Source of the DNA: Candidatus Amesbacteria bacterium GW2011_GWC1_47_15
GTDB lineage: Bacteria; Patescibacteriota; Microgenomatia; CAZETR01; Amesbacteraceae
Assembly: GCA_001001375.1 (NCBI GenBank)
Contig: LCNU01000015.1
Location: 1 to 60,290 of the forward strand
Length of the DNA: 60,290 bases
Direction: 5' to 3'
Shown here piece by piece: positions 12,889 to 19,642 of this stretch. The notes beneath the pieces are model-generated. The model made no database searches and was not told the DNA's origin. It saw only the letters and a program-made list of their open reading frames with translations. The stretch's first letter is position 1. Each line of letters opens with the position of its first letter. A program made the position numbers and the translations under genes.

Positions 12889-12909
12889 GTGTTAAAATCC
12901 ATAAGTATT

Positions 12910-13188
12910 ATGGCATATAAATGTGATAATTGCGGCAGAGGCGTGCAATATGGTGAAACCCATACCCACGGGCGGGGTGTGGCGGGAGGCCGGTGGAAAA
13001 AAAGAGCTCCGCATACCCGCAAAGTATTTAGACCCAATCTGCATAATGCAAGAATCATGGTAAAGGGAGTCGTAACCAAAATGAAGCTATGTACTAAGTG
13101 CCTGCGCAAGCTCAAATCTCAAAGCCAGCTTGCCGTCAGGCAAGGTACAAAGCTCAAGACCGAAGAGGTTGTATCTGCCACGGTATAG
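12910..13188 (+). CDS. rpmB: 50S ribosomal protein L28
   Basis: MAYKCDNCGRGVQYGETHTHGRGVAGGRWKKRAPHTRKVFRPNLHNARI...CTKCLRK matches the L28 pattern, including the PNL motif. The start is set at the second Met of track ORF 12889..13188. Confidence 0.85.
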   Translation: MAYKCDNCGRGVQYGETHTHGRGVAGGRWKKRAPHTRKVFRPNLHNARIMVKGVVTKMKLCTKCLRKLKSQSQLAVRQGTKLKTEEVVSATV

Positions 13189-13999
13189 GATTTTTACCTT
13201 CATATTGAATTGTCGGAGGGGTCAGGGAAATAAGTTTTATTCTTTTGCCTTCCGGGTTTTCAGTCCAAACTCCGGGCCAGGGATGCAGGGCGCACCATTT
13301 GCGGGACAATTCTTTATTGTTTGTTGTCAGTTGGTCGTTGAAGGCATCCCAGGGGATAAAGCCGTCGGCACGGGTGAGCTGGCGGGCATAAAAAATGCCA
13401 TCCGACGGAATCTTTTGGGGTACCGGTTTATTTGCCCCAGCGGCGATTTTAGGTAAATTGTCGATGAGCAGATCAGCTCCAAGGTGATACAAACGGTCGT
13501 ATATTGTCTGCCGGGTATCGGCGTCCGAGATAGGGGTTTTTATTTGGGCAAGGATCGGACCGGCATCGAATCTTTCTGTCATTTTGACCAGAGTGACGCC
13601 CGTTTCCTTCTCACCCCAAAGAATCGCCCATTCGGCCGGGAAGCGGCCGGGATATCGGGGCAGAAGGGAAGCATGCATGTTTATGGCCATAATTTTGGGT
13701 AATTCCAGCCAGGCTTGAGGAAGAAGTTTGCCGTAACCGGATGCGATTAAAAAATCGGGAGGATTTTTTGAGAAGGAGAGTAGAAAAGCAGGAGAGTCAA
13801 AGTCGGCGGGAGTATGGACGGTAAGGTCGTGTTTTTCGGCGAATATTTGAACCTCAGTCGGCCTCAATTCCAATCCGCGGCCTGATGGGGAGGGAGGAGT
13901 AGTAACAACGGTTATGGATTTGTTAACCGCTAATAATCTTTCAAGTACTACGACGGAGTAGTGCCGGAAGGAGCCGAAGAAAACAATATTGAAGTCCAT
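13154..13999 (-). CDS. fmt: methionyl-tRNA formyltransferase
   Basis: 281-aa ORF. The N-terminal Rossmann sequence is IVFFGS, followed by HASLLPRYPG and the TG...VKM...DAGPI block. Confidence 0.9.
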   Translation of the reverse strand: MDFNIVFFGSFRHYSVVVLERLLAVNKSITVVTTPPSPSGRGLELRPTEVQIFAEKHDLTVHTPADFDSPAFLLSFSKNPPDFLIASGYGKLLPQAWLELPKIMAINMHASLLPRYPGRFPAEWAILWGEKETGVTLVKMTERFDAGPILAQIKTPISDADTRQTIYDRLYHLGADLLIDNLPKIAAGANKPVPQKIPSDGIFYARQLTRADGFIPWDAFNDQLTTNNKELSRKWCALHPWPGVWTENPEGKRIKLISLTPPTIQYEGKNPIPWQIQPLRS

Positions 14000-14052
14000 A
14001 CCCTAATTATATTTGATTGGGGAAATAAGGGAGAAGTAAAGATAATGATCAT

Positions 14053-14727
14053 TTATCGACCATTAGCGCGCATTTGCTGATATTCTTTCATAACTTTTAA
14101 TGCTGCTTTCTTACTTCCTGTGACTTCGACAAGTTCTCTCCAGGCATAACCATCATCAGCGATAGCCTTCTTGATAATTTCCTCCATATGAAATTGGGCG
14201 TTAAATTCAGCATTTGAAGTTTTAAAGGATGCAACTCCCTGGGAAATTCTTTCTCCAACTCTTAGTTTTGTGGCTAGAACATACCCGATGCAAAAGAGGC
14301 TTGACAGGCCGCTCACGATGGTAAGCGGAATGTCGTTATCTGCGTAGGATTCTTTTACAATAACCCCGCTGATACCTAATGAAGTTCCTGCGCCAATATT
14401 GGATATAACTTGGTAAAAATTGGGGTGATTATCGCCTCTTATTTTAGATTCAGCAAGTTCTGTCAGACCACCTATCACTCCCAAAGCTACACCAACTAAT
14501 AATATTTGAGTTCTTAGTTCTTCAAATGATTGCTGGGCAGGGGCGCCGTTAATATCGAAAAGGCTTTTGACTCCAATGAATGCGATCCCACTCATGTGGC
14601 CCCGATGATTCCAGGCGGTCTCAGCGGCATCTTTTAAAGGATTGAAATTCAAATCTATACCCGTATCCATGAAAGCCAGGGAGGAGGGGAAGTCCGGATT
14701 TTCCTTGCGGCTGGGGGTGAGGGTCAT
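14053..14727 (-). CDS. hypothetical membrane protein
   Basis: 224-aa ORF with about 4 hydrophobic helices and a soluble C-terminal tail. Confidence 0.6.
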   Translation of the reverse strand: MTLTPSRKENPDFPSSLAFMDTGIDLNFNPLKDAAETAWNHRGHMSGIAFIGVKSLFDINGAPAQQSFEELRTQILLVGVALGVIGGLTELAESKIRGDNHPNFYQVISNIGAGTSLGISGVIVKESYADNDIPLTIVSGLSSLFCIGYVLATKLRVGERISQGVASFKTSNAEFNAQFHMEEIIKKAIADDGYAWRELVEVTGSKKAALKVMKEYQQMRANGR

Positions 14728-14795
14728 GTTTTTTAGAATTCTAAATTAGTACTGGCTTATAGTCAATATTGAAATATATGCTAAGATAAGTTGAC

Positions 14796-15002
14796 ATGGC
14801 AGTGAAGCGGGAGTTGGAATATGTTGATGTTCCGCCGGATGTGGAACCGGGGGAGATAAGGAATTTGGGGGAAGTGAAGGGGGAAATGAAAGTGTCCGAG
14901 ACCGGGCCGGACGGAAAGAAAATAGGTTATAAAAAAGAAGTCACTGTGACATTAATTTCAAATAAGTCGGGAGAGATTGTGGCAGTGCCGGGCAGGGGCT
15001 GA
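14796..15002 (+). CDS. hypothetical small protein
   Basis: 68-aa ORF in an otherwise empty gap. No motif. Confidence 0.4.
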   Translation: MAVKRELEYVDVPPDVEPGEIRNLGEVKGEMKVSETGPDGKKIGYKKEVTVTLISNKSGEIVAVPGRG

Positions 15003-15782
15003 TCAATCAAAACTGATTTGCCCCAGGATTTTATCAAATTCATCCTGAGTGACCAAGCCCTGGCTGGTTTCATATACAATTTCACCTGTAATAAGGTCTT
15101 TGCCGATGGCGCCGTTTCTATTTTGTAAACCTGTATCCAGTTCTATAGGTCTGGTTGTCCCGTTGAGGAACCTCATGTCTTTTACAGACGGTGCAGCATT
15201 TATCTGCTCCACCGCCAGATTATGAATTTCCCGATGTTGCTGTCCGGTGTATTCTGCTTCGACTCCCGATCTTTTGGAATCATATAACTGGCGGGGGTTA
15301 GGGTATTGCCGTCCGCCTACCAAACCCGATAAAAAGTTGTGGATGGCAAGTCCTGCTTCCTGGCGGATAGTGGTACCGCTTTGTGGCGGAGGAGCACCCA
15401 ATTTCCTTTCCGCTTCAATTTGGGCCGCTTGATGGATAACTTCCCATACAGACCCAACCCGCACTTTTGCCTGAGGAGCGGCGGGGTGCCTGTCTCTAAA
15501 TTCCGGGTCTTCCTGAGCTTCGGCAATTACCTTGGCGATTGATGCCAAACCGCGGCGTTCATGGTCGGCTTTAGAAATTTTAACCCGGGAATCAGGTCCT
15601 CTAGCAACTGCCAGGACTCCGGTGGTATGATTCATAATTTCATTCAGGGCTTGTTGCCGAAGTTTCAACGCAGTGTCGGGGTCCTTTTCCAATCGGGCCT
15701 TACCGGCATTTTCCAGGCTTGTTCCTGTATGACCGACGACGGGCTTGAAAGCGAAATTGAGAAGTTCACGCAGATTTGCCAT
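15003..15782 (-). CDS. hypothetical protein
   Basis: Track ORF 15003..15980 trimmed to MANLRELL..., which starts 4 nt after the upstream stop. It shares an L-x-LRQQAL-x-x-I motif with the upstream ORF. Confidence 0.6.
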   Translation of the reverse strand: MANLRELLNFAFKPVVGHTGTSLENAGKARLEKDPDTALKLRQQALNEIMNHTTGVLAVARGPDSRVKISKADHERRGLASIAKVIAEAQEDPEFRDRHPAAPQAKVRVGSVWEVIHQAAQIEAERKLGAPPPQSGTTIRQEAGLAIHNFLSGLVGGRQYPNPRQLYDSKRSGVEAEYTGQQHREIHNLAVEQINAAPSVKDMRFLNGTTRPIELDTGLQNRNGAIGKDLITGEIVYETSQGLVTQDEFDKILGQISFD

Positions 15783-15786
15783 TGAT

Positions 15787-16527
15787 TTACTTGTCCCGGC
15801 GGACGCTAAAACGAGTGCTGCCCACTTCGATCTTGAGAGTAGGAGTATGGACAATTGAAGCATCAACTTTGGCAGCACTGCCTTCTGCATAGGCTCCACC
15901 CGGTCCGACGCTGGCTCTGGACTGGCCGGTATTGCCATTTGAGTCAGGAGGTGTATATGCTCTTGCCTCTGCAAACACACTGGTACCGCCTTTTATCTCC
16001 AAAGTGACAGGGGCGGAAGCGGCTGTGATATCCATACCAGGCGGGAATTTTTGTCTTACTCTCTCAAGAGAATGTTGAGTCTGACTCCTGCGGCCGAAAA
16101 GACCCCGGGATTCCGTTTTGGTTACAGTTTGTATTTCCCTGTCATCGGTCAAATCGCCGCGTTGGATGGACTGAAGAGCCTGGCTGATAATTCCGGACAG
16201 AGTTCCTTGGCTTTCGGTGTGCAGGTCGCGGGCGGTGCTGTATGCCTCAAGCGCCATTGCTGTTTGCTGGCTGACTACATGTGAAACAAGACCATTAATA
16301 AGTTCAGGGTCGGATGGCTTTAGGACTGCCTGGATTGCTTGGTGGGTAATAGCTGCTTGTTGGGCATTCTTTTCCCTTTGGGTTTGGAGCAGTATTGCGG
16401 ACAGAGCTTGCTGGCGGAGAAGCAGTTCTTTATCCTGGTAAGGGCCCAGTTGATTCAACGGCCGAGAAACAGGCGCCGATTCTTTTCCGGCCACAGCAGT
16501 AAGTATGCGTTGAAAAATACTTGTCAT
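15787..16527 (-). CDS. hypothetical protein
   Basis: Track ORF 15787..16560 trimmed to MTSIFQ..., whose ATG overlaps the upstream TGA (ATGA). Confidence 0.6.
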   Translation of the reverse strand: MTSIFQRILTAVAGKESAPVSRPLNQLGPYQDKELLLRQQALSAILLQTQREKNAQQAAITHQAIQAVLKPSDPELINGLVSHVVSQQTAMALEAYSTARDLHTESQGTLSGIISQALQSIQRGDLTDDREIQTVTKTESRGLFGRRSQTQHSLERVRQKFPPGMDITAASAPVTLEIKGGTSVFAEARAYTPPDSNGNTGQSRASVGPGGAYAEGSAAKVDASIVHTPTLKIEVGSTRFSVRRDK

Positions 16528-16952
16528 CTTACGTTGGCTAGAGAGAATATTGTAGCACAAATAGAAGTTCTAAATTCGTCAGTATGATAGGAAAATATTC
16601 TTATTTTCGAACCCGCCGGCAAAGAGATTTTTTCGGGTTTGTCAATCTCAGCCGCGGGGTGGGGATTATTTTGGGCTAAGGTGTTTACGAGCCACCCTGA
16701 ACCAAACTCAATCGCAGTAACGGGTTTTCCGTCAAAGTGCAAGCCCAGATTTGTGAAAGCGATTTGGTGTGGCGGCAGATATTCGTGCAGGGAGTGGAAA
16801 AAAGTTAATCCTGCAGGCCATTGCAGAGACTCAGTACCGTCGTATGATCTTACGGGATACGCTCGACACCCCTCGCTGATTAACTTTATCTTGTCCGCAT
16901 CAGGCAGAGATGCGCCAAGAATTTCTTGAATCTTTTCCAACCTGGACGGCAT
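16524..16952 (-). CDS. hypothetical protein (weakly SUKH/SMI1-like by eye)
   Basis: 142-aa ORF. The N-terminal IQEILGASLPDADKIKLISEG resembles the LPxxY/F pattern of SUKH immunity proteins. Low certainty. Confidence 0.55.
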   Translation of the reverse strand: MPSRLEKIQEILGASLPDADKIKLISEGCRAYPVRSYDGTESLQWPAGLTFFHSLHEYLPPHQIAFTNLGLHFDGKPVTAIEFGSGWLVNTLAQNNPHPAAEIDKPEKISLPAGSKIRIFSYHTDEFRTSICATIFSLANVR

Positions 16953-17041
16953 AGAAGGATTCTAAGTGAGGAGATTGTGGCTGTCAACCTATAATTACTC
17001 TCTTCCTATGTATTTTTCCGGACTTATATTATAATCCCGTT

Positions 17042-17935
17042 ATGTCTTTGGAGCTTCTGGACCTGGCATTAAAAAATCATGCGACCAAAGAAGCGACGAT
17101 GCTGGCGCTGAAAGCGGCGCAGCATTATAATGGGATTTTACTCGATATAAATCCGGATGGGAAAGAAGGATCGGATTGGGAAACGGTATTAAAATGGAGT
17201 ATCCCGGCACTGATAGGAGCAGCGGCGGTAGGGACGGCCATGGGTACTTTGGAAAAGCTGAAAGCCAGAAGACGGCAGGAGGAAAACAAGATGCACGAGA
17301 GGCATAAGGTGTTGGCGCAAGATGAAAAAATGACCCGGATTCAGGAAACCACAAAAGCAAAAAAAATATCAAACGGGGATTTGGGATATAGATTTATATT
17401 ACAAGCTTTGGATGTAAACGAACAACAGTTGAAGGATAATCCTTCCTGGAGACAGATCATTTTTCTTTTTATGGATTACACGCAAGATTTTGGCCGGAGT
17501 GCAAAACATAGGGAGGTTTTTGAGGCAGCTCTTGCGGACATGAAAAGTCAATTAAGAGAATGTAATTGGCATCATACCAGTCCGGAACCGCATGATGTAG
17601 ATGATGCCCTTAGGGCGCAAATGCCGGACAAAGGAATCAGGGCGCATGGCTTAATAAATAAAGGTGAAGCGTTGGAAAGAATAATAAAGGAAGAAGAGAA
17701 AAAGAAAAAACAAAGAGCGGAAGCAGAGAGGGATGCCCGCAGAGCGGCTCAATCGCTTCAAAGCATCGAAGTAATCGGGAGGGAATATAATCGTACCAAC
17801 CAGTTTTATGAAGACAATGAGAGAAAAAGGGCGGAGGAAGAAGCTCAAAGGCACCAAGGAGATGGGGGAATTGAAATTACACACAGGACTTTAAGACAGC
17901 AGCTGCTGGGGGATAGATTTCGCCGTGGCCGATAA
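17042..17935 (+). CDS. hypothetical protein with one TM helix and a Lys/Glu/Arg-rich coiled-coil tail
   Basis: 297-aa ORF, divergent from 16952. Confidence 0.6.
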   Translation: MSLELLDLALKNHATKEATMLALKAAQHYNGILLDINPDGKEGSDWETVLKWSIPALIGAAAVGTAMGTLEKLKARRRQEENKMHERHKVLAQDEKMTRIQETTKAKKISNGDLGYRFILQALDVNEQQLKDNPSWRQIIFLFMDYTQDFGRSAKHREVFEAALADMKSQLRECNWHHTSPEPHDVDDALRAQMPDKGIRAHGLINKGEALERIIKEEEKKKKQRAEAERDARRAAQSLQSIEVIGREYNRTNQFYEDNERKRAEEEAQRHQGDGGIEITHRTLRQQLLGDRFRRGR

Positions 17936-17981
17936 CACTTATTGACCGGTAATAATGGGTATGCTATAAGATGATACATCA

Positions 17982-18695
17982 ATGGCAAATGAAATTGATA
18001 AAATAATAAGCAGGTTTGCCGGACGCCAGAAAAATAGATTACTGCAGGAAACACAAAACAGATTGACTTCGGGTAATGATCCGGAGTCAAAAATTAGCGC
18101 GGGTGCAAAAGCATTTTCAGAAGCCACTACGAGAATGGAAAGTATTAAAGGAGGCCATGTAAGGGTGTCTGAAGCTTCTGAGAGATTTTTACAAGAAGGT
18201 ACTGCGGGATTGGAGGAAATGGAAGCCCATCCTGGCTTGATAAATAATTTTGCAACAGGGTTTTTGGCATTATTCCAGGCAGTGTTCAGAGAAGAAACTG
18301 AAGAACGGCACGCGGTAGAGGTATACGGTCCCCCGGTGGCCTTGGGAAAACTGGCAAAAGAGCTCGGGTTGGATTATCAAACCGCCCACCGTTATTATTT
18401 ACAGATGATAGACAGGAGGATAATCGAAAAACCACCAAAGAAGAAAGGTGATAAATTCAGCTCTTTAATAATATCAGGTGAGGCGGCGGAATTTTTGGGA
18501 TTACTAGTTGAGCATATCGGACCGCCCAGACCGGGAAAACGGACAAATATGGACAGAACATTCAGTTGGCTTGAGGCTGAAATACAAAAAACGAAAATGA
18601 CAAAAATCGGCAGCTTAACGCCATCTCACAAACATGCAAGAGGTTGGAACGTGGATGCCGGGACTGCAGATATAGATGTAAAATCTAAAGGCTGA
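17982..18695 (+). CDS. hypothetical protein with a probable winged-helix segment
   Basis: 237-aa ORF. LGKLAKELGLDYQTAHRYYLQMIDRRIIEK looks HTH-like. Confidence 0.6.
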   Translation: MANEIDKIISRFAGRQKNRLLQETQNRLTSGNDPESKISAGAKAFSEATTRMESIKGGHVRVSEASERFLQEGTAGLEEMEAHPGLINNFATGFLALFQAVFREETEERHAVEVYGPPVALGKLAKELGLDYQTAHRYYLQMIDRRIIEKPPKKKGDKFSSLIISGEAAEFLGLLVEHIGPPRPGKRTNMDRTFSWLEAEIQKTKMTKIGSLTPSHKHARGWNVDAGTADIDVKSKG

Positions 18696-19230
18696 CTTCT
18701 TCCCACTCCTTCCCGGAGACACGAAACAGCTTGGTGTTTTGAGACAGGACGTGGTCGATGAACAGTACTCCGTTTAAGTGGTCCGTTTCATGCTGAACGA
18801 TGTGAGCTGAGAAACCGCTGAGGACAGCAGTTTTTTTTGACAATAGCCATTTACCATTTTGCATTACAGGAACGTGATATTTTATAGTAACGCTTGAGGA
18901 TCTTTTGATGGGGGCGAAATGGCGGGGAATGGATAGACAGCCTTCATAGATACCGTTTTTTGAGCTGGGATTGAGTGTACGCTGGGAGTAGCGGATGATG
19001 TCGGGGTTGATGAACAGCCGAGGTTCTTTTTTCAAGTCGGGGCGGATAAAGAAGATGCGAAGCGGTACACCGATTTGGGGAGCTGCCAGACCTACACCCT
19101 CGGGGTCCCGGGCAGCCAGAAGGGCTTTTCTCATCTCTTCAATGATCCTCAGGATCTTTTTATCTATCTTTTCCACCGGTTTGGCAACCTGGCGCAAAAC
19201 GGGATGGGGGACGGTAACAATCGGGGCCAT
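18685..19230 (-). CDS. def: peptide deformylase
   Basis: All three Def motifs are present: GVGLAAPQIG, EGCLSIP and HETDHLNG. Confidence 0.92.
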   Translation of the reverse strand: MAPIVTVPHPVLRQVAKPVEKIDKKILRIIEEMRKALLAARDPEGVGLAAPQIGVPLRIFFIRPDLKKEPRLFINPDIIRYSQRTLNPSSKNGIYEGCLSIPRHFAPIKRSSSVTIKYHVPVMQNGKWLLSKKTAVLSGFSAHIVQHETDHLNGVLFIDHVLSQNTKLFRVSGKEWEEVSL

Positions 19231-19249: not shown

Positions 19250-19642
19250 TCAAGGATCGACGCAGATTTCTATCTGTTTGCCTTGTTGGCTTTCCTCCAT
19301 GGCTTTTTCCAGAAGCCCTTTGCTAAATACAGTTTGGATTTTTCGGTGGGGGAGGGCAGCTTCGGGGCGGTGGATTTGGTAGGGCGGCAATTCGATGACG
19401 GCAGGATCATTAGCAGCCAGCAGCAGCTCGTTCACAGTGGTGTATTTCATGGCGGGGAGGCAGGACCAGGAGTATGCGACTATGGCCGCATCGAGGGAAA
19501 GCGGCGTGGGTCCGGTGCCGGTGTCTAATGCCTGCTGTTGGGTATCTCTATCCCCGCCGCAATTGACAAGTGCAATGGCCAAAATAGCTGCCAGCCCGAG
19601 GGGAAGGAATATGTCGACCCAGTGAACATATCTTTGTTCCAT
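19250..19642 (-). CDS. putative lipoprotein
   Basis: 130-aa ORF with a signal-like helix ending in the lipobox-like ALVNC. Confidence 0.5.
   Translation of the reverse strand: MEQRYVHWVDIFLPLGLAAILAIALVNCGGDRDTQQQALDTGTGPTPLSLDAAIVAYSWSCLPAMKYTTVNELLLAANDPAVIELPPYQIHRPEAALPHRKIQTVFSKGLLEKAMEESQQGKQIEICVDP

Follow-up and report, generated by a model that had tools for sequence, protein, structure and literature searches.

In the 60,290-nucleotide (nt) stretch of Candidatus Amesbacteria bacterium GW2011_GWC1_47_15 analysed here (the window, contig C15 of a genome of 0.91 Mb in 52 contigs, 88% complete, from aquifer groundwater), seven open reading frames (ORFs), named A to G, lie between def, encoding peptide deformylase, and fmt, encoding methionyl-tRNA formyltransferase. 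This block is not one seven-gene system; it is made up of a resident small gene (B), a conserved mobile cassette of three genes (E, D and C, the triad) and three species-specific orphans (A, F and G). The overall explanation that we favour, at about an even chance, is that the def-fmt gap is a variable slot holding an acquired block, with the E-D-C triad as its functional core and an antagonistic role as the most likely one. The features concerned are as follows.

18685–19230, minus strand: def, peptide deformylase (Pfam Pep_deformylase, 2.6e-38), with TAAAAT 7 nt before its ATG
17982–18695, plus strand: G, orphan of 237 amino acids (aa)
17042–17935, plus strand: F, orphan of 297 aa, divergent from E
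16959–16987, minus strand: promoter-like site of E-D-C, TTGACA-17-TAGAAT, the best in the region (11/12 positions), its -10 box ending 6 nt before the E ATG
16524–16952, minus strand: E, first triad gene, 142 aa in the window (168 aa when intact)
15787–16527, minus strand: D, second triad gene, 246 aa
15003–15782, minus strand: C, third triad gene, 259 aa
14796–15002, plus strand: B, small basic protein, 68 aa in the window (105 aa when intact)
14053–14727, minus strand: A, orphan membrane protein of 224 aa between B and fmt
14053–14220, minus strand: hypervariable C-terminal tail of A (aa 170–224), site of strain differences
13154–13999, minus strand: fmt, methionyl-tRNA formyltransferase (Pfam Formyl_trans_N, 5.4e-30), with its own TATAAT box 6 nt before its ATG

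A first-pass annotation of this DNA had placed the seven ORFs as listed, had named def and fmt in this same-strand order and had found no confident family for anything between them, and all of this was borne out. None of the seven, the intact forms of E and B included, matched a family in Pfam, NCBIfam, PHROGs or PADLOC, and C, D, E and G had no relative among PDB sequences.

The def-fmt gap as a variable slot

The def and fmt genes were located in 30 relatives, in 23 of which both lay on one contig (14 of the same family and nine at class level). They were co-directional in 22 of the 23, with a gap of 16–680 nt in 16 genomes and inserts of 1.1–3.4 kb in six; the exception, G024, has them divergent. 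It is also the ninth of the class-level relatives, the other eight having co-directional genes 17–410 nt apart. Adjacency of def and fmt is the rule in this class. Across the 14 same-family genomes the gap ranged from 16 nt to 3.4 kb, small examples being 16 nt (G010), 37 nt (G004), 285 nt (G009) and 446 nt (G016) and larger ones 1.1–1.6 kb (G017, G012, G015 and G008), 3.0 kb (G013) and 3.4 kb (G006). The 4.7 kb in the window is the largest def-fmt gap among the genomes searched. The inserts of relatives consist of mutually unrelated orphans with no Pfam or PADLOC match. Since both the size of the gap and its unrelated orphan cargo differ among genomes of the family, the gap is a variable slot, or accessory islet. 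The def of the closest relative is 65% identical, and the nearest named def loci belong to metagenome-assembled genomes of Woesebacteria, Microgenomates and Gottesmanbacteria.

When the seven proteins were compared by tblastn with the def-fmt junctions of 20 relatives and with the whole genome of the window organism, no relative and no paralogue was found. Searches of 26 genomes of the family, 400 genomes of the phylum and 5.8 billion proteins did not find the block outside its own species or genus, to which it is restricted. The comparison of junctions proposed in the first-pass annotation thus revealed neither a housekeeping block present throughout the lineage nor a phylum in which def and fmt are never neighbours. 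Its picture of an island inserted into a conserved junction holds for A and for C to G, which are species-restricted in a class where adjacency is the rule, but not for B, a resident of the slot rather than cargo.

Exact versions of the block proteins occurred on 39–54 contigs, compared with 49 for def and 41 for fmt, and contigs as long as 110 kb, drawn from several samples, had the same gene order; within the population sampled, the block is fixed in the species. GC content at third codon positions (GC3) was 0.38–0.46 for the six cargo genes (A, 0.40; G, 0.38; the remainder C to F), compared with a genome mean of 0.51 ± 0.06 and a value of 0.56 for def and B. A check of composition, also proposed at first pass, therefore put six of the seven block genes below the genome mean.

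The E-D-C cassette: selection, exchange and homologues

Comparison with a second strain lineage, represented by contigs L068 and L033 (99.9% identical where they overlap), revealed 6.1% divergence from the window running exactly from the start of E to the stop of C. Outside this patch, 0/100 nt differed upstream of E and 4/499 nt on the side of B and A. Within it, dS (substitutions per synonymous site) was approximately 0.13 and the ratio of non-synonymous to synonymous rates (dN/dS) was 0.27 for E, 0.37 for D and 0.46–0.47 for C, compared with approximately 0.8 in a shifted frame. Because these ratios lie below that of the shifted frame and the divergence is confined to the interval from E start to C stop, E, D and C are coding, are under purifying selection and were replaced as one cassette between strains. 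That they are real genes is further indicated by protein-level homologues in other lineages, alongside the dN/dS values of 0.27–0.47.

These homologues are few. A phmmer search with D against 1.84 billion representative proteins yielded, beyond its own cluster, only P0006 (6e-5) and P0007 (9e-4), both encoded on groundwater contigs by loci with the same order of three genes, of 159–170, 234–235 and 262–278 aa. Shuffle z-scores were 19.7 and 16.7 for D against its two homologues, 10.8 and 8.1 for C against L039:7858-8694 and L038:2811-3599, respectively, and 7.6 for E against L038:1619-2098. In D, conserved positions occur along the full length and not just at the N-terminus. Among 5.8 billion proteins, C was represented only by 98% and 87% identical versions. 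Profiles of D gave matches at chance level only in 400 genomes of the phylum and 60 relatives of the second triad lineage, profiles of D and C found nothing in viral contigs and that of C nothing in metagenome contigs; for D, the divergence of the alignment precluded a pattern scan of metagenomes.

The hosts of the other triads are approximately class-level distant from the window organism (def 44% identical, MgtE 36%). Their triads adjoin genes for an adenylate-kinase-like protein and an M16 peptidase, not def and fmt, such that two of the three triad lineages carry the cassette away from the def-fmt junction, and multi-transmembrane (multi-TM) proteins and a twin-arginine translocation (TAT)-signal protein are encoded beside it. 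Two of these loci, L038:1-3786 and L039:5068-8840, come from near-identical genomes of another lineage of the candidate phyla radiation (CPR). Their flanks are 92–95% identical DNA, whereas the cassettes are unalignable and mutually inverted, with triads that are approximately 25% identical and with different neighbours; the break lies inside the gene for the TAT-signal protein. In a variant, L065, an IS200-like transposase gene (L065:6142-6819; 26.2 bits against a cut-off of 23) is found beside the cassette. The triad is a new and rare family, while the islet itself is of a known and ordinary kind, an accessory islet of Patescibacteria in a core-gene slot.

No TM segment and no signal peptide was found in E, D or C. 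Gly, Ala, Pro and Leu make up most of the residues invariant within the triad families, in which no pattern resembling that of nucleases, proteases or HEPN proteins is seen, and since nothing among them looks catalytic these proteins might be binding or structural ones, a weak indication drawn from three or four sequences per family. A FecR domain (PF04773) was considered for the C-terminal half of D and rejected, the match scoring 18.3 bits against a cut-off of 24 and being absent from P0006 and P0007. Two earlier suggestions about the triad did not withstand comparison. Paralogy of C and D, proposed from a shared N-terminal motif, comes down to a BLASTP match of 18 aa (E = 0.016), and hhalign of the two family alignments returned a probability of 0.1%. 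A resemblance of E to SUKH/SMI1 immunity proteins found no such Pfam match at E ≤ 1 for the 142-aa form, the 168-aa form or two homologues, and no toxin domain is encoded by neighbouring genes.

The proposed three-gene operon on the minus strand was, on the other hand, upheld. Across the genome TATAAT-like hexamers peak 6–9 nt before starts (164/736 long ORFs) and Shine-Dalgarno-like motifs are rare (87/736 long ORFs, 12%), and because of this pile-up of -10 boxes together with the rarity of Shine-Dalgarno-like motifs, leaderless mRNAs seem to be the norm in this organism. Example boxes in the window lie at 16953–16964, 17030–17041 and 14000–14012. E is preceded by the promoter-like site listed above; D and C have no -10 box of their own, the start of D lies within a 4-nt overlap with E and only 4 nt separate C from D, so that D and C are translationally coupled and E-D-C is an operon of this coupled type with a leaderless-type promoter. 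For both E and F the -10 box stands exactly 6 nt before the ATG, the modal position genome-wide, in keeping with their being real genes. The box of F is TATAAT and that of A is TAGAAT at 10 nt, the boxes of A, B and G being weaker and 8–10 nt from the start. As def and fmt each have their own -10 box, the two do not form a simple operon in this genome.

The window copy of the block lacks two segments, one of 78 nt at 16601/16602, in frame inside E, and one of 117 nt at 14995/14996, in the 3'-terminal part of B. Over 14.3 kb, contigs L058 and L062, which derive from other samples, match the window at 100.000% identity, with the presence of both segments as the sole difference, and the 117-nt segment of B is present in L036, L033 and L058. 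The 168-aa form of E was found on 52 contigs and the 105-aa form of B on 54, the 142-aa and 68-aa forms being confined to the window contig. The 78-nt segment encodes N123 and R125, which are invariant in the E family, and holds a 10-bp perfect inverted repeat (CAATTCCCG.../...CGGGAATTG). These window-only losses represent either an assembly artefact or a very recent private deletion.

The resident gene B, the orphans A, F and G and the flanking genes

Intact B resembles small ORFs lying antisense in the def-fmt gap and abutting the fmt start in G011, G012, G013, G016, G017 and G018 (blastp 8e-5 and 7.5e-4), with a common layout that includes a basic C-terminal tail. Such a gene occupies the gap in at least seven genera, that of the window included, and loci of the family are L014:4866-5192, L018:3914-4279, L015:6777-7151, L019:4173-4544, L024:4050-4433 and L013:3928-4458. 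Its members are approximately 105–125 aa long, their start being only about 13 nt from that of fmt in some genera, and a profile of the family run over 151 genomes of the class matched only within one taxonomic family (f1). The GC3 of B is like that of the flanking def and fmt. B is conserved in this slot throughout the family as its resident gene, and is not cargo. Because its homologues share the antisense position and its GC3 equals that of the flanks, the ancestral layout in the family was def, antisense B and fmt; the species then gained A on the fmt side of B, and C to G on the def side. The B family may affect fmt expression.

A had been described as a four-TM protein; it is a membrane protein, encoded on the minus strand, but only two of its Gly-rich TM segments are strong (aa 75–93 and 133–151), with one or two weak ones (45–63 and 106–124). 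Strain differences are concentrated in its tail. In strain L067, 34 of 36 differences in A fall within the last 168 nt and dN/dS over the whole gene is 1.54, in a background that is otherwise nearly identical (fmt 0/846, M50 0/597, the end of C 0/390, B 1/318). In L036 the variant sequence is limited to the first half of the tail, and the tail alleles therefore appear to be mosaics; in both strains fmt has no single-nucleotide polymorphism (SNP). The membrane part is almost invariant among variants, with one G79S/A81T variant and three single changes. The tail is net basic by its count of K/R against D/E and, by the positive-inside rule, is more likely cytoplasmic.

Diversity-generating retroelements (DGRs) are common in CPR bacteria. 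The A tail resembles a DGR target in that a C-terminal stretch of approximately 170 nt varies, mostly non-synonymously, in an identical background. It differs in that its variants look like recombination mosaics, and it was rejected as a DGR target since the 88%-complete assembly yielded no reverse transcriptase (PF00078, for which positive controls worked) and no template repeat.

Of the other two orphans, F has 34% charged residues and a marginal hydrophobic segment at aa 49–67 (Kyte-Doolittle 1.43), and no homologue was found in 26 family genomes or in phages. G, whose stop overlaps that of def by 11 nt, matched only its own cluster among 5.8 billion proteins, and its in-frame codon score does not exceed the score of a shifted frame. 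The two had been called a divergent pair, F with a TM helix; both are indeed divergent from E, but they are co-directional with each other and the TM segment of F is marginal. The winged-helix-like segment that had marked G as a regulator found no support, the match to HTH_IclR being weak (E = 0.17; 12.1 bits against a cut-off of 22), and what remains is a possible helix-turn-helix around aa 116–150. None of A, F and G had homology to neighbours of the other triads, and the membrane proteins of the three loci are not detectably homologous.

Some observations concern the flanking genes. In four relatives the def match falls into two pieces (query residues 1–120 and about 125–181) with approximately 90 nt between them in one open frame of 205–216 aa (G004:C42:41239-41856, G012:C3:27856-28482, G017:C5:48774-49376 and G019:C33:65712-66347), and the single frame therefore points to an in-frame insertion of approximately 30 residues in peptide deformylase. 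Several relatives have a stop codon within the fmt match or a two-piece match (G013, G015, G010, G018 and G001; two-piece in G007 and G020), irregularities which could represent alignment overrun, separate genes for the N- and C-domains or a broken gene. In the window, rpmB (12889–13188, plus strand; ribosomal protein L28 by Pfam) is convergent with fmt, sharing 35 nt with the 3' end of that gene. Just upstream of def, a gene for a 130-aa TM protein (19250–19642, minus strand) has clustered, mostly non-synonymous strain SNPs (six non-synonymous to two synonymous in L061, two to two in L059).

Role of the locus and competing explanations

The triad would encode a non-enzymatic, cytoplasmic complex of three proteins on accessory DNA that is exchanged horizontally. 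The role that we consider most likely, tentatively and with somewhat less than an even chance, is an antagonistic interaction, for example phage defence, immunity or a function of toxin-immunity type; A, F and G would either serve it as species-specific accessories or be cargo of the slot with no connection to it. An antagonistic role fits because the triad is sporadically distributed, resides in a hotspot and is replaced as a cassette, and because the block has low GC3 and a membrane protein with a diversifying tail. The conflict or host-interaction system envisaged in the first-pass annotation is possible from evolutionary behaviour only, namely cassette replacement and the hypervariable tail; neither the block nor the homologous cassettes nor the relatives' cargo has a PADLOC match.

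Defence islands and core-gene-flanked hotspots are in general recognised by conserved flanks around strain- or genus-specific content. The window slot is like them in its conserved flanks, variable content and deviating composition, and in the whole-cassette replacement seen between near-identical genomes; it is unlike them in that neither the slot nor the other triad loci nor the inserts of relatives encode a known defence protein, and in that the window has no mobility genes. With polymorphic toxin and SUKH (SMI1-KNR4) cassettes the triad has in common small linked genes, fast divergence and sporadic occurrence, as well as an E N-terminus superficially like the SUKH opening motif. Unlike those cassettes it has no SUKH/SMI1 profile match in E and no recognisable toxin or trafficking domain, and D is conserved throughout.

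A number of results weigh against the explanation that we favour. PADLOC-DB 2.0 gave no credible match with the seven proteins or with two further sets of ten, one from the homologous cassettes and one from the cargo of relatives, and no Pfam, NCBIfam or PHROG match ties the homologous cassettes or the relatives' cargo to an activity or to conflict. All three triad lineages come from one aquifer, and their distribution could reflect sampling. The block contains no integrase, transposase or phage-like gene by Pfam and PHROG, its borders have no att-like or flanking repeats above chance and no tRNA, and phage genomes searched by tblastn with D, C and F gave no match; by its gene content and borders the block does not appear to be an integrated mobile element or prophage. 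The other triad loci lack counterparts of A, F and G, which argues against a seven-gene system. The non-synonymous excess in A is not significantly above neutral (binomial p = 0.21). Models from AlphaFold2 gave no fold evidence, that of E (single sequence) being unusable at a predicted local distance difference test (pLDDT) score of 33.7 and that of D (three-sequence alignment; pLDDT 44.1) being discarded apart from its predicted secondary structure, in which long helices over residues 29–122 would be followed by an all-beta part over residues 130–245. Foldseek with the D model returned only meaningless matches, with template modelling scores of about 0.1.

An unlikely explanation is an envelope or host-attachment module. 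In it, A and F would act in the membrane, the triad would provide cytoplasmic parts that assemble or anchor a surface structure used by the episymbiont on its host cell, and variability would reflect adaptation to hosts. A would fit it with two to four TM segments and a diversifying tail, as would the multi-TM and TAT-signal proteins beside the cassette at the other triad loci and the upstream neighbours in the window, which are envelope genes (Wzy-like, lysozyme-like protein and sugar nucleotidyltransferase). It is at odds with the lack of signal peptides and TM segments in E, D and C, with membrane proteins that are not detectably homologous between the three loci and with a net-basic tail of A that is more likely cytoplasmic.

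The antagonistic role also has a stronger version, in which E-D-C would be the first described three-protein non-enzymatic conflict cassette restricted to CPR, traded as a unit among co-resident ultra-small bacteria in core-gene-flanked hotspots, with A as a diversifying sensor or target; in this full form we consider it rather improbable.

It is quite improbable, too, that a mobile element or prophage left the block as a decaying remnant, with genes that serve the element rather than the cell and are being lost. Low GC3, the sporadic distribution, the IS200-like gene beside the cassette in one variant of another locus and the deletions in E and B of the window copy would all be expected of such a remnant. 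The triad is, however, under purifying selection, dozens of contigs carry every ORF intact, the searches above revealed no integrase, repeat or phage homologue and the E and B deletions are seen in one assembly only. A lineage-specific housekeeping role, tied to translation initiation or N-terminal processing and recruited beside def and fmt, would agree with the conservation of B in the slot across the family and with the fixation of the block in the species; it is very improbable, given that the triad elsewhere adjoins adenylate-kinase-like and M16 peptidase genes, that slot cargo is wholly different between genera and that separate promoter-like boxes serve def, fmt and the block genes. That A, F and G are chance open frames, some of them not genes, is hardly credible for frames of 224–297 codons in DNA of 44–45% GC that are intact on approximately 40 contigs, have -10 boxes at genome-typical spacing and, in A, combine a near-invariant membrane part with a variable tail as expected of a protein, even though they have no homologue outside the species, the G codon score is no better than in a shifted frame and strain SNPs in A and F are mostly non-synonymous.

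Patescibacteria have many genes without an annotated function, very few of which can be grouped into testable units. Here, an anonymous block has been resolved into three testable objects, namely a cassette with borders, a promoter-like site, three diverged alleles and signs of selection and exchange, the variable tail of A and the antisense gene B. The biology seen so far is ordinary for the phylum. Should the cassette prove to be a conflict system, its type would lie outside current defence catalogues; otherwise, the locus is a clean example of a core-gene junction serving as an accessory-gene slot in a reduced genome.

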